Shown one piece after another: positions 17,494 through 55,955 of a stretch of 57,277 nucleotides of DNA (position 1 is its first letter; each line of letters begins with the position of its first letter). Both the position numbers and the translations under genes were made by a program. This DNA is from a virus. Taxonomy: Duplodnaviria > Heunggongvirae > Uroviricota > Caudoviricetes. The stretch lies in the IMG/VR virus record IMGVR_UViG_2721755643_000007. One strand, given 5' to 3'. The notes beneath the pieces were generated by a model. That model was given only the letters and a program-made list of their open reading frames with translations. It was not told the DNA's origin and did no database searches.

Positions 17494-18813
17494 TTACACT
17501 GGTGTGTTCAGCAAATCGTTAACGGCATCAGATGCCGGGTTACCTGCAGCCAGTGGTGCCGGTGCCCCCTGCATCAGACGATCCAGCGCAGTGTCACTGC
17601 GCGCCTGTGCACTCTGTGGTGCAGCTGCCAGAATGCGGCGGGCCGTTTCCACGGTCATACCGGGGGTTTCGGCCAGCACACGTGCCTGTTCTTCGCGTCC
17701 GTGAGCTTCCTCACAGTTGAGGATCCCCATAATGCGGCTGTTTTCTGCCGCAACCGCAGCGGTGATCTGCGCGTTCACGTCCGGCTGCGCCGCGCTGGCG
17801 TTTTCGCCCTCCGTCGCTTGCACCACGTCAGTAACGTCAGCCTGCGAAGCAGTGGCTGAAACAGTTGTTGATTGAGTCTCTTTGGTCATTCGCCCTCCTG
17901 AGAGACGGGATTTACGTGCATCCAGTGCATCACGCATAACGGTGATCGCATCGGTGCTGTTGACAAGTTCATCAGCCAGTCCGGCATCAATGGCCTCCTG
18001 ACCGCTGTACACTGCAGCCTCGGTATCCAGCACAGCCTGCACGGACAGGCCGGTATATGCCGACACCTTCTGCGCAAACATCCGGCGGGTTGCATCCATC
18101 CGGGACTGCAGTGTCTCCCGGACATCACCCGGTAGATGGCTGTAGGGGTTGCCATCCACCTTATGGCTGCCGCTGTAAATCAGCGTGATTTCCACGCCCT
18201 GTTTCTCCAGCGCAGCGCCGTAATTACTGTGAGCCATCATGACGCCGATGGAGCCTGTCCGGGCGGTCTGCGTGACCAGACGCCGGGAGGCGGCGCTGGC
18301 AAGCAGCTGACCTGCACTGCAGTTCATGTCGTTGGCCAGCGCCCATACCGGCTTTATGTCACGCACACGGGCGATGATGTCAGCACAGTCAAATGCTCCC
18401 GCCACCATCCCGCCCGGTGTGTCCATATCGAGCAGAATGCCGTCCACCATCGGATCGCTGGCAGCCTGTTGCAGACGAGCGATAATGCCGTTGTAACCGG
18501 TCATTCCCGAATACGGCTGCAGCGCCCGCGTCCGGCTGACCAGCGTACCGGACACCGGCAGCACGGCGATGCCGTTCATGACCTGATAACTGCGGGCCTG
18601 TCGTGGTCCGTCATCATCACCGGATAACGCCAGCGCCGCGGGTGCCTCTCCGGCAGTCAGGCTGTCGCCGGATACTGCATCCGTCAGGCGACTGATCCCA
18701 AGCTGGCCTGCAAGCGCACAAAAGAAAACCCGCGCATAGGCGGGTTCAAGCATCAGCGGCTCATTAAAAGCCATGCTGGCAATATGCGGGAGATTACGCA
18801 GCTCTGCTGTCAC
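17494..18813 (-). CDS. C: capsid protease/scaffold protein C (Nu3 nested in-frame)
   Basis: 439 aa lambda C-like from (V)TAELRNLPHIASMAF; GTG start preceded by AGGAGG; overlaps the end of B by 20 nt. Confidence 0.9.
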   Translation of the reverse strand: MTAELRNLPHIASMAFNEPLMLEPAYARVFFCALAGQLGISRLTDAVSGDSLTAGEAPAALALSGDDDGPRQARSYQVMNGIAVLPVSGTLVSRTRALQPYSGMTGYNGIIARLQQAASDPMVDGILLDMDTPGGMVAGAFDCADIIARVRDIKPVWALANDMNCSAGQLLASAASRRLVTQTARTGSIGVMMAHSNYGAALEKQGVEITLIYSGSHKVDGNPYSHLPGDVRETLQSRMDATRRMFAQKVSAYTGLSVQAVLDTEAAVYSGQEAIDAGLADELVNSTDAITVMRDALDARKSRLSGGRMTKETQSTTVSATASQADVTDVVQATEGENASAAQPDVNAQITAAVAAENSRIMGILNCEEAHGREEQARVLAETPGMTVETARRILAAAPQSAQARSDTALDRLMQGAPAPLAAGNPASDAVNDLLNTPV

Positions 18814-19567
18814 TCTTCTCCTCCTCTGTTGATTGTCGCAGTCCGGATTCAAATGCCGCAGCCGCCCAGGCGGGCGGTTTAAGACCGGCTGCACGGCGCT
18901 CCATCGTTTCACGGACCTGCTGGGCAAAAATTTCCTGATAGTCGTCACCGCGTTTCGCGCACTCTTTCTCGTAGGTGCTCAGTCCGGCTTCTATCAGCAT
19001 CACCGCTTCCTGAACTTCTTTCAGACCATCGATGGCCATACGACCGGAGCCTATCCAGTCGCAGTTCCCCCAGGCACTGCGGGCTTCCTGAAAGCTGAAG
19101 CGCGCTTTTGAAGGTAACGTCACCACGCGGCGAACGATGGCCTCTTCAAGCCAGCACAGAAACATCTGGCTCGCCTGACGGGATGCGACGAATTTTCGCC
19201 GCCCCATAAAGTACGCCCACGACTCGTTCGCACTGGCCCGTGCCGTGGAGTAGCTCATCTGGGCGTAATTCCGGGAAAGCTGCTCATACGAGACACCCAG
19301 CCCGGCAGCGATATACCGCAACAGTGACTGCTCAAACACGGAGTAGCCGTTATCCGTATCCTGAGCCGTCTGCAGGTTCAGTGAGTCCCCCGGCATCAGG
19401 TGCGGCACTTTTGCGCCTCCCAGACGGACCGGTGCTGCGGCGTAATACGCGGCAATTTCACCAATCCAGCCCGTCAGCCTTTCCCGCTGCTCCTGACTGT
19501 TCGCGCCCAGAATAAAATCCATCGCTGACTGCGTATCCAGCTCACTTTCAATGGTGGCGGCATACAT
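18794..19567 (-). pseudogene. B: portal protein B, C-terminal fragment (gene split by the island insertion)
   Basis: 257 aa MYAATIESELDTQSAMDFILGANSQEQ...EEEKSDSRAA matches the C-terminal part of lambda gpB; begins exactly at the insertion junction. Confidence 0.9.
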
Positions 19568-19645
19568 CGCCTTTATGAAAAGACAGGAAAAAATAAAATT
19601 TAAAAACAGTACATTACGAATGCTCAGACCTATCGTTTAAAGGAG

Positions 19646-19670
19646 TCGCAATACACACTGCAATACACGA
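19646..19670. repeat. direct repeats GCAATACAC(A) near the island left end, candidate integrase arm-type sites
   Basis: CGCAATACACA and CTGCAATACACGA in tandem; same motif occurs three times at the right end. Confidence 0.5.
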
Positions 19671-19702
19671 TTATTTATAAGATGAGCGGCATCCGTCATA
19701 AA

Positions 19703-19941
19703 GCTGGTGGATGCTTTTTCTATGCATATATGCACAGTTTTAGTGGGCGTTAATGTCGATATAGGGATCCCCATATCGAGATTGGATACCTGGCTTTTTT
19801 CCGGTTAACCTTTAATCAGGCTGGTGGGCTTTACCTGTTTTGTATGAGTGGTCATCATGACCATGTCATAACAAAAACCCCATATTCGTGGTTTTTCTGT
19901 GTCGGGCTATTCTGTCGTTGCTGTGCTGATTTGGCTGGTGG
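19703..19941 (+). other. cluster of three Chi sites (5'-GCTGGTGG-3') within 240 bp, same orientation
   Basis: Exact octamers at 19703-19710, 19820-19827 and 19934-19941 on the plus strand in non-coding DNA, interleaved with palindromes (TGCATATATGCA, TCGATATAGGGATCCCCATATCGA, TGGTCATCATGACCA). Confidence 0.7.
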
Positions 19942-20009
19942 GCTGAATCATCATTACGGCGATGCAGCTATGTAGACGTTCCGGCCTCCTCAAATTGAGG
20001 ATTGTGGAA

Positions 20010-20400
20010 GAATCAATGGGTTAGTCTTACTTTCCCGACATCCCCCAATGGGGGTTTTCGAAACAATCAATAGCTTAGGCTTACTTCCCCGATTTCCTGC
20101 ATTGCAGGTTTTCGAAATAATCAATGGGTTAGGCCATCGTGCAATTTTGCACTTTGCCAGCCAGCGCAATGTCGCGTTATCAGTCCTCAGATGTGAGGGA
20201 TGTAGCCAGCTTTTCCCCCAGTGGGGGATATCCAGCACCGACGGCTTAACTGTGCGTGCCAGCACAAGGTAGCCTTGAACTACTTACTGCATCCCATCTT
20301 ACAGGCCGTGCCTTCCTGCTTAACTTTTTGCAATGCAACAAGTCAGCCAGCGCAATTTTGCGTTATCGGGAATATCAGCAAGTTACCGCCGCAATCGTTC
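20010..20400. repeat. array of imperfect direct repeats each carrying a short GC-stem hairpin
   Basis: Recurring ATCAATGGGTTAG / ATCAATAGCTTAG and GTTTTCGAAA flanks around hairpins CCCCCAATGGGGG, CTGCATTGCAG, GTGCAATTTTGCAC, CCCCCAGTGGGGG; GCCAGCGCAAT(N)TTGCGTTATC present twice. Confidence 0.55.
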
Positions 20401-20664
20401 CGGCTTCTTCCACTGGTAAGTATTTTTCGCGCTCTCCCTCCGTTGTTGAGAACGGCGACGATATGCCAGCAACTCAAGGACTCTTGTTCGTATGTTGCGC
20501 ATATCCACGCCGTTAAGCTCAATACCGTCACGGCGCATCACCTCAGCCACTACACGCACATAATTATCTGCGGTCACGCTGTCCGGCTGCGTGGCCTGTT
20601 CGTCATGCTGCTTGCTGATTCCACAAGCACGGCGGATTAATCGCAGTATTTCGGATTCAGTCAT
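20383..20664 (-). CDS. hypothetical protein (93 aa) immediately downstream of the island small terminase
   Basis: ORF MTESEILRLIRRACGISKQHDEQ...; basic C-terminus; no family recognised. Confidence 0.5.
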   Translation of the reverse strand: MTESEILRLIRRACGISKQHDEQATQPDSVTADNYVRVVAEVMRRDGIELNGVDMRNIRTRVLELLAYRRRSQQRRESAKNTYQWKKPERLRR

Positions 20665-20675
20665 AGCGTACTACG

Positions 20676-21230
20676 TTACTTATCTTTATTCGGCTGCAAC
20701 TTATCCGGTACGTTTCCGGCAGTTTCCATCAGATAATCGGACAGCATCAGCGGTATGTTTTCGTCAAGTTTTGCGCATGCGTTACAGGCTCTGATAACTT
20801 CTTTTTTCAGTCCATCCAGCATAGACGGCTTCATGTCGGGAAACTTCCTTGTCATGGCAAGCGGCAGGCTGTCCATGATTGAAGAAATCTGACTCGCCAA
20901 TTTTGAAAGCACGTATATACAAAACGCTGTATCAATAACGTCGCCGCGTTCGCGCTCGTTTTTAAGCTCCTGCGCCTCTGCCTGTGCTGTCAGCAATCTG
21001 ATCCTGACTCGTAGGAGTTCATCATCATCAATCTCGCCTTTGTCGTCTGTAATCTGGTTAATTGCATTGCTAACCCGATTGTCTATTACGCTGGCAACAT
21101 CATAAAACGCCTCGCGGCCTTTACGTTCAACGGGAGTCACTCCCCACTTGTCGAACGCTGTCGCACTTACACGGCAGCTTTGCGCCATGTTTTTTTTGTT
21201 CATCAGGTGCGATTTCATCAATATCCCCAC
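20676..21230 (-). CDS. terminase small subunit paralog (lambda Nu1-like) encoded by the island
   Basis: C-terminal two thirds align to helper Nu1 (RLLTAQAEAQELKNERERGDVIDTAFCIYVLSKLASQISSIMDSLPL versus [47 protein letters not shown]); adjacent to the island cos; true start may be the internal MNKK. Confidence 0.8.
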   Translation of the reverse strand: MGILMKSHLMNKKNMAQSCRVSATAFDKWGVTPVERKGREAFYDVASVIDNRVSNAINQITDDKGEIDDDELLRVRIRLLTAQAEAQELKNERERGDVIDTAFCIYVLSKLASQISSIMDSLPLAMTRKFPDMKPSMLDGLKKEVIRACNACAKLDENIPLMLSDYLMETAGNVPDKLQPNKDK

Positions 21231-21329
21231 TTAAGTAATGTTTCAGGTTGGTGTATTGGCTTTATCTTTTCCTTTTTATTCATAGAGATAGAGCGAACAA
21301 CAAAACCACCACCAGCACCCGAAAAAGGC

Positions 21330-21394
21330 TCATAAATAGCGAAAACCCGCGAGGTCGCCGCCCCGTAGCCTACCGGATCGCCGGAAAGGACCCG
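21330..21394. other. island cos site: cosN and cosQ-side sequence shared with helper cos, cosB side divergent
   Basis: 65 bp block nearly identical to 34091-34154 (3 mismatches); contains AGGTCGCCGCCC at 21352-21363, the reverse complement of the lambda cohesive end GGGCGGCGACCT; flanks diverge toward the TerS gene. Confidence 0.8.
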
Positions 21395-21419
21395 CCAGCC
21401 AGAACGGGCCCTAATTTCA

Positions 21420-21803
21420 TCAACCAATCAACTTATAGCGACCATCCCGTGCATTGCGACGTACACGCTCAATCTTGAGGCATAGCGCCGCATCTGGCTT
21501 TTTTGGGACAGGTACGCGGCAATATTCAGAAGATCGAGGAATATTGTTTATCCAGTCGATCACTTCACTTAAATACCAGGCCTTACGCCCTTCCGTAACC
21601 TGTACGCGTTCGGGGAACTCTCCGCGAGCCTCAAGGTTTAGCAATGTGCGACGGCTAAGGGTAGTAAGTTCCATCACCTGATTCATATCAACAAGGCGTT
21701 CACTTAAACGCATTTTGTCAGCAATAGCCTTTAATTCCTCTACTGCTGGATCCGGATACATCATTTCGGCAATTGGCTTAAGGTCATTGTAATGATTCTG
21801 CAT
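21420..21803 (-). CDS. AlpA-family HTH DNA-binding protein (second copy in the island)
   Basis: 127 aa with MELTTLSRRTLLNLEARGEFPERVQVTEGRKAWYLSEVIDWINN resembling AlpA-type motifs. Confidence 0.6.
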   Translation of the reverse strand: MQNHYNDLKPIAEMMYPDPAVEELKAIADKMRLSERLVDMNQVMELTTLSRRTLLNLEARGEFPERVQVTEGRKAWYLSEVIDWINNIPRSSEYCRVPVPKKPDAALCLKIERVRRNARDGRYKLIG

Positions 21804-21814
21804 TGTATCCCCCT

Positions 21815-22156
21815 TTACACACGAGCCAGCGGCTGAACAGAAATACCTGAGCCAACAAACGCGGCAACCTTTGCCGACAGTTCTTTTACAGACTCAGGCC
21901 AGTTCAGAGCATCAACATTTAAAACACCTGTCTTATAAACCTGTGCCTGTGTTTTTTTCACTGTGTCGATTTGTACAGCGGAAACATAAACCGCTTTACC
22001 TACGCTCGAACCATCCCATACCACCAGTGCACCTGTTGCATCTTCCTGCATCAGTGGCGTAAATGCAGGAATTACCCCTTTATTAGCTGAAAATATCCCC
22101 AGCGTAGTCACCAGTGCTTCAGTGCCAGCCATGAGTTCAGTGTAATGAGTAGCCAT
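21815..22156 (-). CDS. capsid decoration protein paralog (gpD-like) encoded by the island
   Basis: 113 aa; shares spaced motifs with helper D (TPLM.D, LV.WDG, YK.G, WPE, AF.G..IS) at low identity. Confidence 0.7.
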   Translation of the reverse strand: MATHYTELMAGTEALVTTLGIFSANKGVIPAFTPLMQEDATGALVVWDGSSVGKAVYVSAVQIDTVKKTQAQVYKTGVLNVDALNWPESVKELSAKVAAFVGSGISVQPLARV

Positions 22157-22165
22157 TGCTCCCCC

Positions 22166-23212
22166 TTAGCCAATGCGAACGGTAACAAAACGATTGATGC
22201 GGGCCGGTATTGGCTGTGGTGCTGAATGTGTCTGCACATATTCAATAGCCGGATCACCAGGCACAATATAGTTTTTCGGTGCAAGTTCGGCTTTAGTCAG
22301 CCCCATTCGGATTAGCTCCGGATCCTGAATACCGCCATAGGCGACAATCCCCTGAAGAGCCGTATTGCCAAGCACCATCAAATCAGGATCAAGGAAATGT
22401 TTTTCTGTTCCGTCCTCGTCGGTATAACGCCCGCTGTAAACAACAATCGCAACATCGCCCATATACCCTTTAAAACTCACCGAATCACCAAGGTCTTTAA
22501 GGGCCGTTTCCAGTTCGGAATTAGAACCACGACGGGTATCCAAAGCCTCTTTTATCGCTCTGAATGAACGGTATTTCTTCCATACATTACCACCCATAAT
22601 GATGATATTAGTGACGCCCTCACTAAATTCTGCGTAGCTCTCAATATCATCATTTGGATCAAAAGTTTCTTTATCCTTACCTGACCACTCAGTACCGCCA
22701 GACTGAGTGATGATATTTTGTGGTTTTATATTCCAGTCCAGCTCATAACGTTCAATACCATCGCCCTCAATGATATTTTTCCCCGTTGTGATTGCCTGAA
22801 CAGCAAGCCATTCAATACGTGCACGAATAGCTTTAGCCTGATTTACAATCGCCTGTTTAACTTTAATATTACGCGCCCCAAAAGCATTGTATTGCTCAGG
22901 TGACACACCAGCAGGGCGCACAGCTAACTTATTTGGATCAATGCTGCTTTTCGGCTTCATATAACCTGGACGAATTGTTTTTGATTCGTATCCCTCATCT
23001 CGTGAAACTTTACTGCCCACCATAGGAGAGCAAAACGCCGCGATCGGGATATTTGGATCGTCGATCGTATCAAGAATAATGTCTCTCGATTCAAACATTA
23101 CCGAGCGAGTGAAAAACAAACTGGTAAACAACGCATTTAATTTTTTTTGCACATCTTCAGCATTAGCCACCTGCACAAGCTGTGTAGGCGAATATAAATC
23201 AACCATACTCAT
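22166..23212 (-). CDS. major capsid protein paralog (gpE-like) encoded by the island
   Basis: Start MSMVDLYS; shares ITQSGGTEWS, DTRRGS.SELETA.KDLG and AIVVYSG with helper gpE; rough by-eye identity 35-40%. Confidence 0.85.
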   Translation of the reverse strand: MSMVDLYSPTQLVQVANAEDVQKKLNALFTSLFFTRSVMFESRDIILDTIDDPNIPIAAFCSPMVGSKVSRDEGYESKTIRPGYMKPKSSIDPNKLAVRPAGVSPEQYNAFGARNIKVKQAIVNQAKAIRARIEWLAVQAITTGKNIIEGDGIERYELDWNIKPQNIITQSGGTEWSGKDKETFDPNDDIESYAEFSEGVTNIIIMGGNVWKKYRSFRAIKEALDTRRGSNSELETALKDLGDSVSFKGYMGDVAIVVYSGRYTDEDGTEKHFLDPDLMVLGNTALQGIVAYGGIQDPELIRMGLTKAELAPKNYIVPGDPAIEYVQTHSAPQPIPARINRFVTVRIG

Positions 23213-23423
23213 CCTCTTTACATTCATTACAAATAATTGTGAATATATTCTATTACCGATGTCTGCTATGCGAATACATGCAACCAAGTGCAATGTTGTA
23301 TAAAATATGCCGTAACAACTTCAGTGCTGATAATTCGTGTTAATGTATTTACTTCCTTTGGTCGGGATTTATGTAGCATGCCGGAAAATCTATTTTTTTC
23401 CGGCATCTTTTTGTTTGCAGAAT

Positions 23424-23846
23424 TTAAAACGGTATATTATCGCCGTACGGATCATCATTCCCCGACTGTTGTTTTGCCCTGTTCAGTGCGTCAGTGGCCT
23501 GCCCCTGCTGGCCTTTTTTGCCGCCCGGTCGCGCCGTTCGCGCACTGATTACGCTGTCTGCGATAACCTGCCAGCCCCGCCGCGTTTCGCCGTTCTGGCC
23601 TGTCCACTGGCTTACCTGCATGTTACCCGCCACGCTCACCAGTTCGCCTTTGTGGTGTTTTGCCAGTGCGTCGGCCTGTCTGCCAAACGCCAGGACGGAT
23701 AACCACATCGTCGCCGTTCCGTCATCTGCCTGGCTGCACGGCAGGGGAACCGCCATACTCGCCATCGCCATTTGTGTCCCTTTGCTGGTGGTCTTTAACT
23801 GCGGGTCAGCCACCAGCCGCCCGTAAGCCGCTATCTGTGCTGTCAT
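23424..23846 (-). CDS. single-stranded DNA-binding protein (SSB-like)
   Basis: 140 aa; OB-fold-like N-terminus, Gly/Gln-rich linker, acidic tail ending DDPYGDNIPF. Confidence 0.75.
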   Translation of the reverse strand: MTAQIAAYGRLVADPQLKTTSKGTQMAMASMAVPLPCSQADDGTATMWLSVLAFGRQADALAKHHKGELVSVAGNMQVSQWTGQNGETRRGWQVIADSVISARTARPGGKKGQQGQATDALNRAKQQSGNDDPYGDNIPF

Positions 23847-24157
23847 GCTGTCTGCTCTCCGGTTTTAACATTGATGGTTGTCACCTGTTCCGCTTCGGCA
23901 ATCTCCCGTTCTGTCAGCGTGGCAAAGTTTGCCGCTGCTGTGGTCATGAATGCGCTTATCAGGTCGGGATGTTCCTTCGCGTATCCTGCCCGTGTGTGGT
24001 GGTCTATCGCTTTGATTGCCACCTTTAAGGAAAGCTCTGTCATGTCTAACGCTTTATATTTTGCCTGTGTTCTGTCTCTGCGAATTTTGGTCATTTGTCG
24101 CCCCTGATTCATGTTTTCGGCTGGCATGTTTGTTAAGTGATTTTTATGTATGCGCAT
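23843..24157 (-). CDS. hypothetical protein (104 aa)
   Basis: ORF with stop/start overlap to SSB, downstream of the ori iterons. Confidence 0.45.
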   Translation of the reverse strand: MRIHKNHLTNMPAENMNQGRQMTKIRRDRTQAKYKALDMTELSLKVAIKAIDHHTRAGYAKEHPDLISAFMTTAAANFATLTEREIAEAEQVTTINVKTGEQTA

Positions 24158-24169
24158 TTATTTTCACCC

Positions 24170-24440
24170 CCCCTCGTTTAAAAAGTTTTTAGTTGTGCCT
24201 CCCCCCCTCTACCCATCTACCCGAATGCTCACCATGTCAGTAATGGCGCGGCTTTCAGCGGGTAGATAGCTTTTTGACTCCTCTACCTGCCGTCTACCCT
24301 GCTACCTGAAACTGATAAAATCAGGTAGAAGAGGTAGAGAGCTTTTATTAGCCTTCTACCTAGCCCTATACCCACTTATCATGTTGAATAATATGCGTTT
24401 ATTTTGTTCAGGTAGATGGGGTAGATGGCTTTTACAAAAA
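24170..24440. repeat. iteron array (GGTAGA / TCTACC motifs), candidate island replication origin
   Basis: Many copies in both orientations (CTCTACCCATCTACCC, GGGTAGATAG, CAGGTAGAAGAGGTAGAGAG, CAGGTAGATGGGGTAGATGG) immediately 3' of the primase-helicase gene. Confidence 0.65.
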
Positions 24441-24441
24441 A

Positions 24442-26196
24442 TTATAAAAACGCGTCGCAATCGTCTGTTGTAATTGCGTTGGTCTGCGTTACTCCCTTAA
24501 CTTTTCGCGTAATATATTCATGCCCGTAAACTTTCGCCGCTGGCTTCATGGCCTTGCTGAACTCAGCCACGTTTAGCGGTTTGCTCCTGCCCGCGTATGC
24601 CATAAACGCCAGATAGACGCGGTAAAGGCTGTTCCTGGTCGTGTACTTCACTGAATCACCACCGCCACCCATCATCAGGCCGCGCGCTTCCTCCAGAAAA
24701 TTCAGGAACTGGCAAAACTCAATAACCGGATCCGTCTGTTGCTTTATTGCCAGTGCTTCATCACCGTCACGCTGTTCCAGTAGTAAAGCCCGTGCCTTCT
24801 CAGGGTCGGTAAAGTTCGCCAGCAATCGGCGGATAATAACGGGGATTTCAGCCGCAATCTTTTCCGGTAGCTCCCTGTCTTTTTCGGCCTCACTGACGAT
24901 ATTGTCGAAACGGAAAATCACGCGACGACGTGCCACACCTCCGGCCCGTTCGGTGAATATCATCGGGTTGTTGTTGGTCGCCAGCACCACCGCCCTGATT
25001 ACCGCCGTGAAACGCTTTTCATATTTCGGGTTAATTTCCACGGGGTCGCCGCCTGTGATTTTCTTGATGCCCGTTCCTTCGCCTGTATATTTCGGCTGGT
25101 CAGCCAGGACGATAAGACGACTCCCGACAACCTGCGCACGTCCACCAGCATCATCAAGCGATGTCATTTCAGCGCTTACCGTGTTCTGTTTCCCTGCCAG
25201 AAGGCTGGCTATGTGTGTGAATGTACTTTTACCGCTCCCGCCGTCTCCGGTGGCCTCAATAAACATCTGCCAGTCGTACCGATTCGCCATAATCATGTAC
25301 AGCGCGGCACATATACGCATCATCTTGCGCGGGTCTTTTCCGGCTGCGTGCTCAAGCCATTTATGAAAGTTTGGCGCGTTATCGCGGATGTTCTCCCCTG
25401 GTGCTGGTGGCGTGTACTCAATGCCGTTGTGCGTGGTGATCCAGTTCTCCGGCGTGTGCGGGGAAAATTCCCCCGTTTTCAGGTCAAGCGCACCATTGGC
25501 GAACGGCAGCAAATCGCCAGACGGCTCGCCCATTGGTTCGGCAATAACTTTTAACGCTTCCACGGCGTTATTGATTACGCGCTTGCTGAAAGTGGCCCTG
25601 TGCTCTGAATAGATCGCCACCATTTCGCGGCTAAGTTCCATTGTGCTGACCGGACACCATACCCCGCCGCGCCATACGTGAACGATTTCACTTTCAGGAT
25701 GTACGCAAACGCCATCAAAGCGATCGGCAAGCAACTGCGCGCGCTCACTGTCCGCCATCTGCGAAAGTTGCGCCTTTTGCTTTACCGGAAGCTCAATGAC
25801 CAGACCATCAGAAAGATTCTGGCGTTCACGGGCCAGATATTCGCGCCAGTTCTGCACCTCCTGGCCGTGCATACCCTCAGGATAAAAATTTGCATCCTGT
25901 ACGCCTGCTGCCGCCAGCTTCTGACCAATCGCCTTTATCATTACAGGCGCAAGATATCCGGCCCTGTATATGCGTGCTGATTTTCGGCCTTCCGGCACAA
26001 TTTGCAGATTATCCAGTTCGGATAGCTGCTGCTCCCCAAGCCACACAGGAGGCTCATTATCTCCGGCCATACGCGCATCATGTTCCTGCCATTGTTTCGC
26101 GTGTGCCCAGGCATCACTACCCGCAAAAATAATGACTTCTGTTCCTTTGTGTTTTATGCCGCGTGACTGCTGTTTTACGTTCGGTGCCAGTTTCAT
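24442..26196 (-). CDS. primase-helicase (D5 / P4 alpha-like NTPase with Walker A)
   Basis: 584 aa; Walker A GDGGSGKST; size and domain order typical of satellite and plasmid primase-helicases. Confidence 0.8.
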   Translation of the reverse strand: MKLAPNVKQQSRGIKHKGTEVIIFAGSDAWAHAKQWQEHDARMAGDNEPPVWLGEQQLSELDNLQIVPEGRKSARIYRAGYLAPVMIKAIGQKLAAAGVQDANFYPEGMHGQEVQNWREYLARERQNLSDGLVIELPVKQKAQLSQMADSERAQLLADRFDGVCVHPESEIVHVWRGGVWCPVSTMELSREMVAIYSEHRATFSKRVINNAVEALKVIAEPMGEPSGDLLPFANGALDLKTGEFSPHTPENWITTHNGIEYTPPAPGENIRDNAPNFHKWLEHAAGKDPRKMMRICAALYMIMANRYDWQMFIEATGDGGSGKSTFTHIASLLAGKQNTVSAEMTSLDDAGGRAQVVGSRLIVLADQPKYTGEGTGIKKITGGDPVEINPKYEKRFTAVIRAVVLATNNNPMIFTERAGGVARRRVIFRFDNIVSEAEKDRELPEKIAAEIPVIIRRLLANFTDPEKARALLLEQRDGDEALAIKQQTDPVIEFCQFLNFLEEARGLMMGGGGDSVKYTTRNSLYRVYLAFMAYAGRSKPLNVAEFSKAMKPAAKVYGHEYITRKVKGVTQTNAITTDDCDAFL

Positions 26197-26492
26197 TTTT
26201 TACCTCTGAATCCGTTAATCATGGTTTTCATTTTCTGGATATTTCCCCACGCTTTTTCCCTGCTGATGGGCTTACTGCGGGGTGCGGCATATACCAGGGA
26301 AAAATCACGCCGGAACTGATAAACAGGCATCACGCAGTCATAGCTATACCCCTCACGGCGGTAAGTGATGCGCCGTTCTGCCACGCCTTTAATCGTTACC
26401 GTGCCGCCGTATTTATCGCGGTAAATATCGCCGTTCATAAATTCAGGTCGAGCGGGGCCGCTGGCAATAAAGCCAGAATTTTTCATTTCCAT
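26193..26492 (-). CDS. hypothetical protein (99 aa)
   Basis: ORF overlapping the primase start by 4 nt (operon-like). Confidence 0.45.
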   Translation of the reverse strand: MEMKNSGFIASGPARPEFMNGDIYRDKYGGTVTIKGVAERRITYRREGYSYDCVMPVYQFRRDFSLVYAAPRSKPISREKAWGNIQKMKTMINGFRGKK

Positions 26493-26509
26493 ATTATTTA
26501 TTCCTCGAC

Positions 26510-26731
26510 TTAACTCGACTTATTTGATAGCAGGGCACTATTTATTGCGTCATTGAGTTTTTCTGCTGATTCATCAATAAGTGACAACAGGCCATAAGCA
26601 ATATTTGCATCTTCATTGTCATTTATGCAATCAAGCCACATATTTAATATTGCTTTTGCTGAATTATTTAAAGTTAATGAACTTTCTGCACATGCTAACA
26701 ATTTAAAAAAGACTTCCCGTTCTGTATTCAT
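26510..26731 (-). CDS. hypothetical protein (73 aa)
   Basis: Small ORF in a tightly packed co-oriented cluster. Confidence 0.4.
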   Translation of the reverse strand: MNTEREVFFKLLACAESSLTLNNSAKAILNMWLDCINDNEDANIAYGLLSLIDESAEKLNDAINSALLSNKSS

Positions 26732-26923
26732 TTAATCCCCCACCAGCTTACTTTCTTCCTCAATCAAAAAACTAGCGACACTTCCCGAAAGACGCGCCAG
26801 TAGGCTCGCCAGTGCGGATATATCAGCATCTGTAATTTTGTTCGGGTATACCTCAAGAAGGCGGCAAATAATTTCTGTCTGGTGCGCACGTTCAGCGGCT
26901 TCGTGTAATGTAATTTCCTGCAT
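26732..26923 (-). CDS. hypothetical protein (63 aa)
   Basis: Small ORF, abutting its neighbours. Confidence 0.4.
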   Translation of the reverse strand: MQEITLHEAAERAHQTEIICRLLEVYPNKITDADISALASLLARLSGSVASFLIEEESKLVGD

Positions 26924-27108
26924 TAATGCACCTCTTTTAATTCATACACTGCTGAAATAATGACTTGTGATAAGCCATATTCTGATGATTCGCTTCTCAC
27001 CGCAGCAATAGCCGTCTGAACATTAACAGCCTTCACATTCTGAGCGATACCAATTGTGTGGCCTATTGGGTTAACAGCTCGGGCAAATACACGGAAGGTT
27101 TTAAGCAT
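26923..27108 (-). CDS. hypothetical protein (61 aa)
   Basis: First gene of the leftward small-ORF operon, facing the divergent control region. Confidence 0.4.
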   Translation of the reverse strand: MLKTFRVFARAVNPIGHTIGIAQNVKAVNVQTAIAAVRSESSEYGLSQVIISAVYELKEVH

Positions 27109-27389
27109 GACTCACTCCCTGGCGGATTTTTGCAGCGAATACAGCAACACAACCGGACGGGCAACGGCTACGCGCTTCGCGTTCCGTCCAGGCGGTTACG
27201 TGGATGATTTGAGATTCTCCGGCACTCAGTGCCAGAAAACGCCACACAAAGGCCGTTTGTGTGTGTACAAGGTGTGGTATATGATTTACAGCAACCATAA
27301 CGGCTCCTAGTTTACGTTGTTGGTTAGACGCCCCGTATGTGTTCCCAGCACTGCGGGGCGTTGCTCTTTGTATTTCAACAATCCTTTCG

Positions 27390-27468
27390 GTGTGTTTCAT
27401 GTTATGAGCGCATGAAACACACGTCAAGGCTTTTTGTATTTCTTTTTTTGTGTATACTGAAACACACC
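27390..27468. promoter_or_regulatory. candidate operator/promoter: 12-bp perfect inverted repeat plus an extra half-site overlapping a -10-like TATACT
   Basis: GTGTGTTTCATG-(9 nt)-CATGAAACACAC at 27390-27422; half-site TGAAACACACC at 27458-27468; TATACT at 27453-27458; AGGAG before the ATG at 27489. Confidence 0.5.
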
Positions 27469-27488
27469 GATGATTAGGAGTTTCAGAA

Positions 27489-27794
27489 ATGGCAACGGCT
27501 AACAAAAACGCAAAATCACAACTGACAACTGTCAGAGTCCCACTAGATGTTATGCAAGGGATGGAATCCGTTAAGCTGGACGGTGAAAGCAATGCCGGAT
27601 TTATCGTAACCGCCATGCGCGGAGAAATAGCCCGCCGCCAAGCAGAAGGCAGCGGAGAAAATCCCCTTGTGTCGTCACTGGATGCCCTGGCTAAGGTCGA
27701 ACAAATCGGCATCAAAGCAGCCGAGGAGATCGGGCAACTCGTCACCGTCGCGCGTGAAGAACTCCAGCGACGCAAGGTCAAAGAGCATGAATAG
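27489..27794 (+). CDS. putative ribbon-helix-helix DNA-binding regulator (candidate island repressor)
   Basis: 101 aa; N-terminal TTVRVPLDVMQGMESV fits the RHH beta-strand/helix pattern; transcribed opposite to the replication operon. Confidence 0.5.
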   Translation: MATANKNAKSQLTTVRVPLDVMQGMESVKLDGESNAGFIVTAMRGEIARRQAEGSGENPLVSSLDALAKVEQIGIKAAEEIGQLVTVAREELQRRKVKEHE

Positions 27795-27851
27795 CCAATA
27801 TCAGCGCCATAGTTTGAGGAACGCAGGCGCATTGCTTTACAGGACAGCACC

Positions 27852-28031
27852 ATGAGCGACACAGAATCAACCAAAACACCATCACCAACTCGTAAGAGAC
27901 GACGCAAAAATATAGCGCATGAACATGAATCAGAAAGATTCGCACCTTGTTCGTTTGCTCTTGAGAAATTCCTTAAAGAGCACAGGAAAAAGCTCTCGTT
28001 GCAAACCTTGGAACGAACCAAATCTGACTGA
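27852..28031 (+). CDS. small hypothetical protein (59 aa)
   Basis: ORF MSDTESTKTPSPTRKRRRKNIAHEHE... co-oriented with the RHH gene; below the ORF-track length cutoff. Confidence 0.3.
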   Translation: MSDTESTKTPSPTRKRRRKNIAHEHESERFAPCSFALEKFLKEHRKKLSLQTLERTKSD

Positions 28032-28127
28032 TCACATTGCCCACCAGCCGCAAATGTGGCATTGTTGGTGATGCTTTTGTTTTCCCTTGTTTCCACTGGC
28101 GACCCTTTTGCGGTCGCCTTTGTTTTG

Positions 28128-28706
28128 TCACTGAATGCGGTTACCAAAGTAAAACTCAGGCTGATATTCACGTATCAGCGTTTTTTCTTCTTCCTCCAGC
28201 TCACGCTTTTTGCGCTTACATGCCTGTAGCTCCCTCCCCTTCTCGCTGGCACTTATTTGATATTGCTCTTTACGGCGGGAAAAATCCTGTAATGCACCCC
28301 ACGGGATACCATAAGTCCCCGTTTTTCTGATACCTGGTATCACATTTCTGAATACCCAGTTACTGAAACGATGAGCAAATGTGCCAGGCGTCGTTGCTTT
28401 GCGGCTGCGGGCTATTAGTTTGTAGAAACCTGACTCAGAGATAATTCTCATATTCTGATTTCCTCCTGGGGTGTAAGTTAAATTTACTCCCTTTTCATCA
28501 TCATCAAGCATCTGCAACGCCGTACGCGAATTGGTTAGTTCCAGCGCAGCACAAACATCTTTTGCAACAAACCACGGATCGCCGTTCAGATACACCACAC
28601 GAACGTTCACACTATCAAAGCGCAGAACGACGAGATCACGAATATCGCAGAATTTTTTCACTGGACGAGCGTACCCCTTGCCCGTCACGGCAATATTTTT
28701 ATTCAT
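28128..28706 (-). CDS. Bro-N domain protein (antirepressor-like)
   Basis: 192 aa; N-terminal FDSVNVRVVYLNGDPWFVAKDVCAALEL typical of Bro-N. Confidence 0.75.
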   Translation of the reverse strand: MNKNIAVTGKGYARPVKKFCDIRDLVVLRFDSVNVRVVYLNGDPWFVAKDVCAALELTNSRTALQMLDDDEKGVNLTYTPGGNQNMRIISESGFYKLIARSRKATTPGTFAHRFSNWVFRNVIPGIRKTGTYGIPWGALQDFSRRKEQYQISASEKGRELQACKRKKRELEEEEKTLIREYQPEFYFGNRIQ

Positions 28707-28762
28707 CGCGTTTTTACCTTATAGACAAAAAACCCCTCGTGATGAGGGGCATTATTTACTGG

Positions 28763-29020
28763 TTATTGCTGTTTTGTTTTTCCAGGTTTCCATCCAGGAT
28801 GCCACTCACCACGGATCCATGCCTGAACCTCTGAAAGTCGATACCCTGCAGCACGTTCACCGATCTTGATACGTCGCGGGAATTTACCTGCCTGCTCCAT
28901 TTTCCAGCGTGTTGAGTTTGCCAGCGTGGTAAGTGCTATGCACTCTTTTTCACGAATGAACCGATCAATGTCCTTCATTGTGCGCAAATCGTTTTCATCA
29001 ACAAGAGAATAAATTGTCAT
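28763..29020 (-). CDS. AlpA-family transcriptional regulator / excisionase-like protein
   Basis: 85 aa; CIALTTLANSTRWKMEQAGKFPRRIKIGERAAGYRLSEVQAWI matches the AlpA pattern; immediately downstream of int. Confidence 0.8.
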   Translation of the reverse strand: MTIYSLVDENDLRTMKDIDRFIREKECIALTTLANSTRWKMEQAGKFPRRIKIGERAAGYRLSEVQAWIRGEWHPGWKPGKTKQQ

Positions 29021-29021
29021 A

Positions 29022-30263
29022 TCACACCACCTCTTTATTAAGCTCGATAACGTTGTTGTTAAATCCTGCTATCGTATTAAGGTAATTAACCCACATATTA
29101 AGCACCTCAAGTTTTTTCTTTATATGCCTGCTTTTATTGTAAACACCAGCAACCCCTTTCACTTTATGACCTAAAAGAAGTTCGACAATATAAGGATCCG
29201 CCCCCATATCATTAAGCGTAGTGGAAAATGTGCGCCTGAAATCATGTATGCACCACAAGCCATTAGTATCATGACCAAGACGCCTGCATATTCTGTTTGC
29301 AGCCCCTGTTATTGTCGCCCTTTGCAAAGCACAACCGACAACATAACCGCGATTTTTTGTTTCTGCGTAAAGATTAACGATCCATTGTTTTATTCCGTCA
29401 GGAACAGGCCTTACTATAGCCTCCTTGTTTTTGCTGTGCTCTTTTGGGACTGTCCATACCCAGTTTTTTAAATCCCATTCGTCCCAGGTGGATAGCCTCG
29501 CCTCCTGCTGTCGGCAACCAAACACCAGGCAGATAACCATTATTCTTCGGTTATATATTGATGACAGAGTTAGCAAATTATTACCGTAAGCATAAGACCA
29601 TACATCAGCGGTTTCATTGATATTAAGAACGCGATCCCTTATACCGGATGAGCGCCCGACATAACTTACGTTAATATCTCCAAAGGGATCGCACGCGATG
29701 TATTGCCTGACGCGACAAAAACGCAACGCCTGTTTGATATCAAGAAAAATTGCACCAGACATAACAGGCGCATTTTTTTTGATCCTGTCAAAGACGGTAA
29801 GCCATGTGTGTAATTTGCACTGTTCTATAGCCATATCACCGATATAGGGGAAGATATGCTTTTCAAATCGTTTTATTAAATATTCATGCTCTTTTCTGGC
29901 TGTTGTGGCGTGATTGTCGTACCAGTAAAACAGCGCATCCCTTACGGTCACTGGTTGCATAGTTTTTTCGGCAGCAAGTTTTATTTGCCTGCGGGGGTCC
30001 AGATTTTCAGCCAGCCATTCACGGCACTGATCACGCATGCGCCTGGCCGTTGCAAGAGACATGTCAGGATAGCGACCAAGTGTAAGCCATACCGGAGGGG
30101 ATTCCCTGCCACCAAGACGATAGTAAAAAACAAAGCTGATCCCCCCAACCATGCTTACACGCACAGACAACCCGCGCCCATCCGCTATTGTTTTTTGTTT
30201 GTCCTGCCGTTTTCCGACAAGACTCTTTAACAGTTTGTCACTGAGTTTGTTTTCAATAGCCAT
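29022..30263 (-). CDS. tyrosine integrase (P4-type, with N-terminal arm-binding domain)
   Basis: 413 aa; N-terminal DGRGLSVRV / YRLGG / LGRYPDMSLATAR motifs; C-terminal HDFRRTF ... LLGH ... VYNKS. Confidence 0.9.
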   Translation of the reverse strand: MAIENKLSDKLLKSLVGKRQDKQKTIADGRGLSVRVSMVGGISFVFYYRLGGRESPPVWLTLGRYPDMSLATARRMRDQCREWLAENLDPRRQIKLAAEKTMQPVTVRDALFYWYDNHATTARKEHEYLIKRFEKHIFPYIGDMAIEQCKLHTWLTVFDRIKKNAPVMSGAIFLDIKQALRFCRVRQYIACDPFGDINVSYVGRSSGIRDRVLNINETADVWSYAYGNNLLTLSSIYNRRIMVICLVFGCRQQEARLSTWDEWDLKNWVWTVPKEHSKNKEAIVRPVPDGIKQWIVNLYAETKNRGYVVGCALQRATITGAANRICRRLGHDTNGLWCIHDFRRTFSTTLNDMGADPYIVELLLGHKVKGVAGVYNKSRHIKKKLEVLNMWVNYLNTIAGFNNNVIELNKEVV

Positions 30264-30281
30264 TAAAAGCCCTCAAGAGAT

Positions 30282-30335
30282 TTGCAATACACACCCATCC
30301 CGATCGCCAATTTGCAATACACATTGCAATACACA
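30282..30335. repeat. three direct copies of TTGCAATACACA between int and the right junction, candidate arm-type sites
   Basis: Copies at 30282-30293, 30312-30323 and 30324-30335; same motif as at 19646-19670. Confidence 0.5.
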
Positions 30336-30411
30336 AAACCGCGAAAAACTGGAAGGGTGATGAACGGTCATCAAAAGCATGGAAAACGACATTCCAGACG
30401 CAGCAAGGGTT

Positions 30412-33392
<2,981 letters not shown>

Positions 33393-33938: not shown

Positions 33939-34160
33939 TGTTCATTCCACGGACAAAAACAGAGAAAGGAAACGACAGAGGCCAAAAAGCTCGCTTTCAG
34001 CACCTGTCGCTTCCTTTCTTTTCAGAGGGTATTTTAAATAAAAACATTAAGTTATGACGAAGAAGAACGGAAACGCCTTAAACCGGAAAATTTTCATAAA
34101 TAGCGAAAACCCGCGAGGTCGCCGCCCCGTAACCTGTCGGATCGCCGGAAAGGACCCGCA
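33939..34160. other. helper prophage cos site (cosB-cosN-cosQ)
   Basis: AGGTCGCCGCCC at 34116-34127 is the reverse complement of the lambda cohesive end; flanking sequence matches the recalled lambda left end toward Nu1. Confidence 0.85.
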
Positions 34161-34326: not shown

Positions 34327-34560
34327 ATGTCAACGAAGAACAGAACCCGCAGAACAACAATCCGCAACATCCGCTTTCCTAACCAAATGATTGAACAAAT
34401 TAACATCGCTCTTGATCAAAAAGGGTCCGGGAATTTCTCAGCCTGGGTCATTGAAGCCTGCCGCCGGAGACTGTGCTCAGAAAAAAGAGTTTCTCCTGAA
34501 GCAAACAAAGAAAAGAGTGACATTACTGAATTGCTCAGAAAACAGATCAGACCAGATTGA
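34327..34560 (+). CDS. small DNA-binding protein, ribbon-helix-helix-like
   Basis: 77 aa; IRNIRFPNQMIEQINIALDQ...NFSAWVIEA fits an RHH fold. Confidence 0.45.
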   Translation: MSTKNRTRRTTIRNIRFPNQMIEQINIALDQKGSGNFSAWVIEACRRRLCSEKRVSPEANKEKSDITELLRKQIRPD

Positions 34561-40982: not shown

Positions 40983-41174
40983 GCTTCACCTCCGCAGAGA
41001 TCAAACGCTGGATGCAAAATATCGCAGGTGCATTTCTGCATCTGTGAATGGAGAAGAGAGGTTGGATTGTATGTGCGCATAAACGTCCCCGTTTAGCGCA
41101 GAAGTCACCGGAGGAGTTCAAACTCCGGTGACTTAATTATGGCAAGTTGATTGTTGAAAATCAATTTAGTGGAT

Positions 41175-48937: not shown

Positions 48938-49041
48938 AACAACCTCCGTGGTTAATTTGAATCAAGATTAAAACTATGGTTGTTTTTAGTCAACAACCAT
49001 TTTCGTTTGATGGGATAAAACCTTGGTTGTACATTTGGACT
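48938..49041. promoter_or_regulatory. immunity-region operators/promoters (OR-like) between cro and cI
   Basis: Inverted repeat ATGGTTGTT-tttagtc-AACAACCAT plus a further CCTTGGTTGT half-site in the divergent intergenic region. Confidence 0.6.
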
Positions 49042-49731
49042 ATGAAAACAACACTCTCAGAAAGACTTAAAGAAGCCAGATTAGCGCGAGGCCTTACACA
49101 AAAGGCGCTTGGGGATTTGGTCGGGGTTAGCCAGGCTGCTATTCAGAAAATCGAAACAGGGAAAGCTAATCAAACAACTAAAATCGTGGAGATCGCGAAC
49201 GCTTTGGGTGTGCGCGCAGAATGGTTATCTTCTGGCGTTGGAAATATGTCAGACAGTACAGTGCAACCAATACAATCAACTGTCAGCCATTCCAAATACT
49301 TCAAGATTGACGTTCTTGATATAGAAGTCAGTGCTGGGCCGGGAGTCATCAACCGTGAGTTTGTAGAAGTTCTACGCTCGGTTGAGTACTCGTTTGACGA
49401 TGCTCGTCACATGTTCGATGGTAGGAAGGCGGAAAATATCCGCATCATTAACGTGCGTGGTGACAGCATGTCAGGAACGATCGAACCAGGTGATCTGCTG
49501 TTCGTTGATATCACAGTTAAATCTTTCGACGGTGATGGTATCTATGCGTTTCTGTACGACGACACAGCCCATGTAAAGCGCCTGCAAATGATGAAGGATA
49601 AGCTGCTGGTCATCTCTGATAACAAAAGCTACTCACCGTGGGACCCGATCGAGAAAGACGAGATGAACCGGGTGTTCATCTTCGGTAAGGTTATTGGGAG
49701 CATGCCGCAGACATATAGGAAGCATGGGTAG
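49042..49731 (+). CDS. cI: CI-type repressor (HTH plus S24 LexA-like peptidase domain)
   Basis: Start MKTTLSERLKEARLARGLTQKALGDLVGVSQAAIQKIE; C-terminal GDSM ... K catalytic-dyad region; ORF track extends 22 codons upstream. Confidence 0.85.
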   Translation: MKTTLSERLKEARLARGLTQKALGDLVGVSQAAIQKIETGKANQTTKIVEIANALGVRAEWLSSGVGNMSDSTVQPIQSTVSHSKYFKIDVLDIEVSAGPGVINREFVEVLRSVEYSFDDARHMFDGRKAENIRIINVRGDSMSGTIEPGDLLFVDITVKSFDGDGIYAFLYDDTAHVKRLQMMKDKLLVISDNKSYSPWDPIEKDEMNRVFIFGKVIGSMPQTYRKHG

Positions 49732-55859: not shown

Positions 55860-55955
55860 TGATTTTATTTTGACTGATAGTGACCTGTTCGTTGCAACAA
55901 ATTGATAAGCAATGCTTTTTTATAATGCCAACTTAGTATAAAAAAGCAGGCTTCA
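55860..55955. other. attL (B-O-P') of the lambda-like prophage
   Basis: Reverse complement reads CCTGCTTTTTTATACTAAGTTGGCATTATAAAAAAGCATTGCTTATCAATTTGTTGCAACGAACAGGTCACTATCAGTCAAAATAAAATCA, i.e. the lambda core GCTTTTTTATACTAA (within 55932-55947) joined to the P' arm; host DNA begins beyond. Confidence 0.85.

Follow-up and report, generated by a model that had tools for sequence, protein, structure and literature searches.

The window analysed here is a stretch of 57,277 nucleotides of viral DNA (Caudoviricetes; IMG/VR record IMGVR_UViG_2721755643_000007), and the subject of this report is the divergent control region and adjoining rightward gene at 27390-27794, which belong to a satellite island lying inside a helper prophage. 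The whole of the observations is best explained, with a probability of roughly 70%, by the 101-amino acid (aa) product of this gene, a YlcI/YnfO-family protein, being a ribbon-helix-helix (RHH) repressor with an array of five sites laid over two divergent promoters, the leftward PL and the rightward PR. In related islands, the recognition residues of the protein and the sites co-vary and are co-inherited, as seen in discrete classes, in two natural swaps and in a reciprocal scan. A preliminary description of this DNA had proposed the region as the master switch of the island, with an immunity of its own, and the pairing of strand and sites, the swaps and the geometry of the promoters all lend support to that reading.

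A periodic site array over two divergent promoters

The perfect 12-bp inverted repeat with a 9-nt spacer, from which the preliminary description started, can be read directly from the sequence, with GTGTGTTTCATG at 27390-27401, the spacer ttatgagcg, and CATGAAACACAC at 27411-27422, the two arms being perfectly complementary. The third half-site claimed to overlap a -10-like TATACT is also present, since a further copy (TGAAACACAC) at 27458-27467 has one base in common with the hexamer at 27453-27458. Moreover, this third copy and the left arm make a longer perfect inverted repeat of 13 nt (TCGGTGTGTTTCA / TGAAACACACCGA). Perfect 12-bp inverted repeats with a spacer of up to 20 nt number three in the window versus 0.23 per simulated window, a rarity that is uncommon, not extraordinary, and that taken alone is weak evidence, so that the case is carried by conservation and covariation instead. 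The other two repeats of this kind, at 41102-41134 and 55913-55948, are probably terminators or other elements of the helper phage.

The common 9-mer core, TGTGTTTCA, has three perfect matches in the window, all of them inside one 76-bp stretch. When up to one mismatch is allowed, 19 occurrences are found window-wide versus 16.3 expected, which is chance level; thus, it is the clustering of the sites, not their number, that matters. Beyond the three sites already described, two degenerate ones are found, TGTATTTCA at 27369-27377 and TGTATTTCT at 27435-27443, and the five starts (27369, 27391, 27413, 27435 and 27458) are spaced by 22, 22, 22 and 23 bp. S0 (27369-27377, plus strand), with one mismatch to the core, lies early in the transcribed leftward leader, and an equivalent site at about -120 from the ATG is found again in several other classes. 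S1 (27391-27399, plus strand) and S2 (27413-27421, minus strand) are the perfect cores in the left and right arms of the inverted repeat, S1 being kept in class C1 islands of Escherichia coli, Xenorhabdus, Photorhabdus and Serratia, where the spacer varies. S3 (27435-27443, plus strand) is a weak site with two mismatches upstream of the rightward -10, and its identical degenerate form is kept throughout the class C1 islands. Finally, S4 (27458-27466, minus strand) is the perfect core of the third half-site. The operators had been described as unrelated to those of the helper; no cluster of TGTGTTTCA-like sites is seen near the helper repressor, an HTH_3 plus Peptidase_S24 protein at 48976-49731.

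A consensus scan places PL on the minus strand, with the -35 TTGACG at 27427-27422, a 17-nt spacer and the -10 TAACAT at 27404-27399, matching 9 of the 12 consensus bases. Among the 16 islands tabulated, TTGACn is present in 14, and TAnnnT with a spacer of 16-18 nt in 13; both hexamers are kept across specificity classes, TTGACn in nearly all of them, although the surrounding repeats differ. For PR, the -10 TATACT (27453-27458, plus strand) is conserved, being TATAAT in Xenorhabdus and Photorhabdus, and no good -35 is present. S2 fills the PL spacer and abuts the -35, while S1, which starts on the final -10 base, extends over the predicted start site. Also, the PR -10 is bracketed by S3 and S4, the latter overlapping its last base and the predicted start site. 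The cognate sites therefore overlap core promoter elements of the operon to be controlled, which is the arrangement of a repressor-operator module. As for the location of the region, described as lying between a leftward replication operon and the rightward 101-aa gene, the rightward side stands as stated, while on the leftward side an open reading frame (ORF) resembling the cell division inhibitor Icd comes before the replication genes.

The 101-aa protein and the pairing of strand class with site motif

The 101-aa protein is encoded at 27489-27794 on the plus strand, behind a Shine-Dalgarno sequence AGGAG at 27476-27480, and comprises an RHH domain and a conserved C-terminal helical region (residues 59-100). 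It passes the curated cutoff of NCBIfam NF041551 (YlcI/YnfO) with 63.3 bits versus 30 over residues 9-50, the identical protein WP_000179580.1 bears the YlcI/YnfO name in PGAP, and in PHROGs it corresponds to phrog_6522, with no function assigned there. The family has 216 matches at E<=1e-3, in E. coli, Salmonella, Citrobacter, Klebsiella, Enterobacter, Yersinia, Serratia, Edwardsiella, Cronobacter, Xenorhabdus and Photorhabdus. No Pfam family scores above threshold for the protein; the curated RHH model PF07704 is matched only below threshold (16 bits versus a cutoff of 28.3), as it is in 28 of 37 relatives with a best E of 0.0011, and a PDB profile search at E<=10 gives no RHH chain.

The RHH-like N-terminus proposed in the preliminary description is supported by structure prediction of the monomer, which yields a predicted RHH fold with a beta strand at about 11-17 followed by helices at 19-28 and 35-53 and a turn of the G-x-S/T/N type. 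The RHH proteins listed for this fold are SvtR, AmrZ, the RHH domain of HicB, omega, Arc, ORF56, NikR, MazE9, MazE4, ParD, TraM, TacA and CopA. With hhalign, the FN[LF]R[WM]P of Arc and Mnt falls on TTVRVP of the 101-aa protein, a register in which residues 12, 14 and 16 would point towards the DNA; of the three, R16 is invariant and the other two differ by class. A homodimer with a two-stranded antiparallel ribbon in the major groove would be supported indirectly by the co-variation of the strand residues with the repeats. Conservation is high over the C-terminal two-thirds of the protein, I73 and G74 being invariant in 36 homologues. In the PDB profile search, residues 45-86 (LAKVEQIGIKAAEEIGQLV) give a marginal helix-hairpin-helix (HhH)-like match to Hef (1x2i, E 0.0025); in contrast, AlphaFold predicts a single continuous helix for the same segment, and the match is a lead rather than a finding. 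Oligomerisation and backbone contact are both candidate roles for the C-terminal region.

Residues 11-17 are hypervariable in discrete classes, with the remainder of the protein conserved (alignment A2). A scan of genome contigs gave 11 loci, and the wider diversity was drawn from contigs encoding homologues and from IMG/VR; 18 strand variants were found among 120 cluster representatives and grouped into about eight classes. Each class has its own 9-mer in three to five copies at shared positions, about -120, -98, -76, -53 and -31 from the ATG. The strands QLTTVRV and QLFTVRV go with TGTGTTTCA, QSLTARI with GTGTAAGAC, KQISIRI with TGTGATTCA and Q[LIV]KN[IV]RI with GTGTGTATT. Likewise, QQLNARF and QQINARF go with TGGTATTCA / TGGGATTCA, QMTTIRV with GTGATATAC, QMISTRV with TGACTACAC and QAIAARV with TGTTTACAC. 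The class consensus motifs were derived by eye and their counts then tested by shuffles; the class-by-motif matrix is near-diagonal, and in 13 of the 14 regions no more than one shuffle in 2000 attains the own-motif count, the exception being the QMKNIRF region (29 of 2000). Proteins from Serratia, Xenorhabdus and Photorhabdus that are 66-76% identical to the query retain TGTGTTTCA, whereas E. coli proteins 80-93% identical to it, yet of another strand class, have other motifs. Judged from these sequence comparisons, the motif tracks strand class rather than phylogeny or overall relatedness. Moreover, the orientation of the sites is + - + - in most classes and + + - - in the KN[IV]RI class, with the positions kept; this variation of orientation at constant position fits two-fold-symmetric RHH dimers and rules out a conserved RNA hairpin.

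Two pairs of islands capture the exchange of both partners. The islands L015 (KQISIRI) and L069 (QMTTIRV) are 98-100% identical in their flanks, over 1.3 kb on the left side and 0.8 kb on the right, but only 20-60% identical between -180 and +70 of the ATG. In the second pair, the window and the island of E. coli J-8, the integrase protein and the portal insertion are shared. Identity is about 100% from +142 rightwards, across the remainder of the RHH gene, Bro-N, alpA and int, and about 85-100% in icd, but drops to 30-60% from -230 to +140; the J-8 protein has the QQLNARF strand, with TGGTATTCA sites, and the protein segment exchanged comprises residues 1-47. Both pairs imply that the operators and the DNA-binding domain were exchanged as a single cassette, and such natural swaps offer ready-made specificity-swap controls for experiments. 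In the reverse direction, a scan of 2.9 million IMG/VR contigs for the exact pattern GTGTGTTTC-N14-16-GAAACACAC recovered 50 loci, 48 of which have a gene with KSQLTTVR[VI]P just downstream (the other two are a locus at a contig end and an unrelated one). On this comparative evidence, the support for the module appears unusually clean.

The helper prophage has a YlcI-type protein of its own (Pfam DUF3950, NF041551) at 34327-34560 on the plus strand, beside cos (about 34030-34130) and Nu1. Its strand, TIRNIRF, resembles that of the satellite class QMKNIRF, and no repeat array is seen upstream of its gene. The resemblance of the strands hints at a common ancestry of the satellite repressors and the helper phage protein.

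Proposed switch and competing explanations

Physical binding and the lifting of repression are inferred from this arrangement, as are the sign of regulation and the oligomeric state. The N-terminal arm and beta-ribbon of the 101-aa protein would read sites of 9-10 bp with the core TGTGTTTCA, and the five sites, one per about 22 bp or about two helical turns, lie across the 120-bp divergent control region. PL would drive the Icd-like gene, four small genes (one of them DUF4222), the primase, SSB and the capsid/terS genes. Because S1 and S2 bracket the -10 of PL and fill its spacer, their occupancy should exclude RNA polymerase from this promoter, and the island would be silent. Occupancy of S3, which is weak, and of S4 would provide negative autoregulation of the 101-aa gene, and this operator is probably the weaker one, so that the repressor would still be made while PL is shut; S0 may extend the array into the leader. 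Most likely, the conserved C-terminal helical part serves to link RHH dimers to one another, as tetramers or larger assemblies, which would allow cooperative binding two turns apart. For the release of the island, two speculative routes may be considered, either an anti-repressor, for example the Bro-N protein encoded at 28128-28706 after alpA (Bro-N and AntA often follow alpA), or antisense read-through into the RHH gene from a helper-activated int-alpA operon or from helper late transcription. The structured leader of icd would probably act as a second, post-transcriptional layer downstream of PL.

A role of the protein as a binder of these sites other than the main off-switch, that is, as an autoregulator of Cro-like or fine-tuning type or as an activator acting on its own weak promoter, with AlpA induction and helper late read-through deciding the fate of the island, is unlikely. 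It would agree with AlpA being required and sufficient for activation in EcCICFT073 and EcCIMP1 (PMC6092414, PMC11773190), with the co-orientation of all other island genes with the helper late genes, through which Q-antiterminated transcription could enter regardless of PL (PMC10111431), and with a PR that, as an activator-dependent promoter would, lacks a -35. However, the location of S1 and S2 exactly on the -10 and spacer of a well-conserved, strong promoter is the placement of a repressor, and the module is kept in islands outside prophages, where helper read-through does not exist. Less probable still is a type II toxin-antitoxin pair, in which the RHH protein would be the antitoxin, the toxin would be a downstream 59-aa ORF or Icd, and the repeats would be merely an autoregulatory operator. 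The downstream ORF lacks conservation and has no match among toxin or defence families; in sister islands no conserved adjacent toxin gene is found in the operon, the ORF being missing from many of them (L014, L017 and L019). Also, the strongest sites lie over the divergent PL rather than over the promoter of the RHH protein itself.

A different assignment of the repeats, as replication iterons or as sites for the primase or initiator, AlpA or the integrase, is very improbable, although periodic, oriented, AT-rich repeats beside a replication operon do look like an origin. A separate and typical iteron cluster is located at 24200-24435, and the motif does not follow the replicase, since L014 has a primase 89% identical to that of the window with class C2 sites, L066 a primase only 28% identical with class C1 sites, and L013 and L014 have common sites but different replicase families. 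Moreover, L015 and L069 have primase, AlpA and integrase in common yet differ in their sites. This reading was therefore rejected, given the separate origin cluster and the independence of the motif from replicase, AlpA and integrase. The least probable explanation of all is that the inverted repeat acts as an RNA hairpin, an attenuator or terminator, rather than as a DNA operator. Its arms of 12-13 nt would give a stable stem if transcribed, but the repeat lies at or upstream of both predicted start sites, and in the KN[IV]RI class the two sites at the same positions are direct rather than inverted repeats, so that site position is conserved and the hairpin is not; on this ground the hairpin was rejected as well.

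Going beyond this island, the repressor-operator module may be an instance of a general rule, which falls a little short of even odds. YlcI/YnfO RHH proteins would then be the global repressor of Gram-negative phage-inducible chromosomal islands (PICIs), capsid-forming PICIs (cf-PICIs) and helper-embedded PICIs (HE-PICIs), with at least eight hetero-immune groups and with operator-plus-strand cassettes of 250-370 bp passing between islands that are otherwise identical. A second layer of control, an unclassified RNA, would operate downstream of these proteins, a leader resembling a tRNA minihelix and ending in ACCA before icd, possibly an RNase P-processed analogue of P1 c4 and P4 CI.

Leader, island context and related systems

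The leftward operon has a conserved structured 5' leader at 27299-27365 on the minus strand, according to an RNAalifold analysis of 17 islands that gives 13 pairs, eight of them with compensatory changes. Its elements are a two-tier GC hairpin (27328-27361), the sequence UCUAACCA (27321-27328), which is invariant, and a small hairpin at 27299-27318 in which the Shine-Dalgarno sequence is presented. The folding energy of the whole 163-nt leader is no more stable than that of shuffled sequence (z = -0.17); the informative evidence is confined to the structure derived from the alignment. The stem and the NCCA together look like a tRNA minihelix or a substrate of RNase P, like those of P1 c4 and P4 CI, and by analogy with these the leader may add a layer of post-transcriptional control. 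Rfam shows no C4, isrK, int-alpA or other relevant family, either in the whole window at the gathering threshold or in 26900-28200 at E<=10, the single match being a chance snoRNA match. Likewise, for RNA immunity of the C4/CI type (RF01695, isrK), no covariance-model match is found in the icd leader of the window. Among 16 sister islands, one has a C4 RNA (L021, 2199-2286, minus strand, 75.7 bits), located about 700 nt into the leftward operon and outside the leader, and the int-alpA RNA motif is present in two sister islands (L003, 9326-9394, and L022, 6026-6091 (-)).

The first gene of the leftward operon is the Icd-like ORF of 65 aa (27101-27298, minus strand; NCBIfam NF033153, 63.7 bits versus a cutoff of 25), followed by four small genes, encoding proteins of 61, 63 and 73 aa and then a 99-aa DUF4222 protein, and by the D5_N/DUF5906 primase (24442-26196, minus strand). 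At 27243-27263 on the minus strand, 35 nt into the Icd-like ORF, lies a hairpin that, together with a U-run (CACACAAACGGCCTTTGTGTG GCGTTTTCTG), resembles a terminator; the same DNA also encodes the conserved motif HTQTAFVWRF, and the hairpin could be an early terminator or a coding coincidence. Just downstream of the primase, a dense cluster of iterons (TCTACC/GGTAGA, at least 12 copies, in either orientation) is arranged around AT-rich stretches, and this cluster is probably the replication origin of the island. In the rightward direction, the RHH gene is followed by the basic 59-aa ORF (27852-28031, plus strand), poorly conserved and absent from many sister islands, and the transcription unit ends at a terminator-like hairpin with a T-run (28098-28118, plus strand).

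The island extends from about 19568 to 30411, inside the lambda-type portal gene of a DLP12-like prophage and co-oriented with the helper late genes. The N-terminal part of the portal gene is at 30412-31293 and the C-terminal part at 18794-19567, the latter corresponding to positions 238-354 of Pfam Phage_portal_2. On the minus strand, the island encodes the integrase (29022-30263), AlpA (28763-29020) and the Bro-N protein and, further along, SSB, a major capsid protein, a decoration protein, a second AlpA-like helix-turn-helix (HTH) protein and a Nu1-type terS. The second AlpA-family protein, of 127 aa, is encoded at 21420-21803 (minus strand) between the capsid/decoration genes and terS, and may be a late regulator. 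The 101-aa gene is the only plus-strand coding sequence annotated by PGAP in the island, bar the insertion sequence transposases inserted in that strain. Throughout the family the layout is constant, with int, alpA and variable genes on one strand and the RHH gene facing them and, on the other side, the Icd-like, DUF4222 and replicase genes pointing away from the RHH promoter. Besides helper-embedded islands, the module is found in islands integrated at ordinary chromosomal sites, away from any prophage.

Of 5426 complete E. coli genomes, 1366 contain a match to all or part of the region, and blastn of 27100-28130 against 50,697 phage records gives no match. In the best database match, L001 (E. 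coli RMDEC364, NZ_CM177020.1), the control region is identical and the primase is split by two tandem ISEc60, that of the window being intact. Also, L015 and L016 hold a related island with the same control module inside the lambda-type major capsid (E) gene, where a truncated Phage_cap_E ORF lies beside the integrase and is followed by the D and C genes. A 49-kb region of CFT073 examined while seeking EcCICFT073 is a lambdoid prophage.

The island belongs to the HE-PICIs described by Tommasini, Mageeney and Williams in 2023 (PMC10111431), as shown by its integration in a prophage late gene, here portal gene B near Pfam position 238-241, by int-alpA, a Bro zone, the primase and captured late genes, and by its co-orientation with Nu1, A, W and B. 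This configuration has already been described, including the site named B:Phage_portal_2:241; in that paper the opposite-strand gene is treated as hypothetical, immunity RNAs and Bro proteins are discussed, and no RHH repressor or operators are described (PMC10111431). The global repressor of Gram-negative PICIs has been called 'unclear' in the literature. Searches for the function of YlcI/YnfO proteins, or for RHH proteins in PICIs, gave nothing relevant; what is already known is the classical kind of system, that of P22 Mnt and Arc, and the name of the family, a functional study of which was not found in the literature.

The likeness to the immI region of P22, with Mnt and Arc at the divergent promoters Pant and Pmnt, lies in an RHH repressor with operators at divergent promoters. 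However, the 101-aa protein has no significant sequence similarity to Mnt and Arc (hhalign probability <=8%), five sites 22-23 bp apart take the place of one operator of 17-21 bp, and the operon opens with icd and replication genes on a satellite, whereas in P22, a phage, it is an antirepressor that is controlled. The proposed architecture resembles that of Mnt, and the geometry resembles that of NikR, an RHH tetramer with two half-sites about two helical turns apart, the nearest array systems being NikR and the arrays of omega/CopG-type RHH proteins. In this case, an ACT or metal-binding domain is absent, and the C-terminus is a short helical, possibly HhH-like segment. Compared with Stl and Rpr of the SaPIs and PICIs of Gram-positive cocci, the repressor gene is likewise divergent from a replication/packaging operon, independent of helper immunity and of multiple specificities; nonetheless, Stl is an HTH protein co-oriented with int, divergent from xis-pri-rep and inactivated by a helper protein, while the fold found here is RHH and the gene opposes int-alpA. 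Finally, the likeness to P1 immI (c4-icd-ant) and P4 immunity (CI RNA, kil/eta) lies in a controlled operon that opens with an Icd-like ORF, behind a conserved structured leader with ACCA at its end. Immunity in P1 and P4 is conferred by the leader RNA itself (PMC10111431); unlike them, the island has a protein repressor-operator pair, instead of or besides an RNA, and no C4 or isrK match is found in the window at E<=10.

Since the mechanism would be an ordinary switch of the Arc/Mnt type, the advance would concern satellite biology rather than the principles of gene regulation. If the proposal is true, a conserved, divergently transcribed RHH repressor, whose class-specific operators lie over the promoter of the icd-replication-packaging operon, would be the off-switch that has been missing for these islands. 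It would also explain the coexistence of several related islands in one cell through hetero-immunity, and would allow a simple, sequence-based sorting of thousands of islands into immunity groups.
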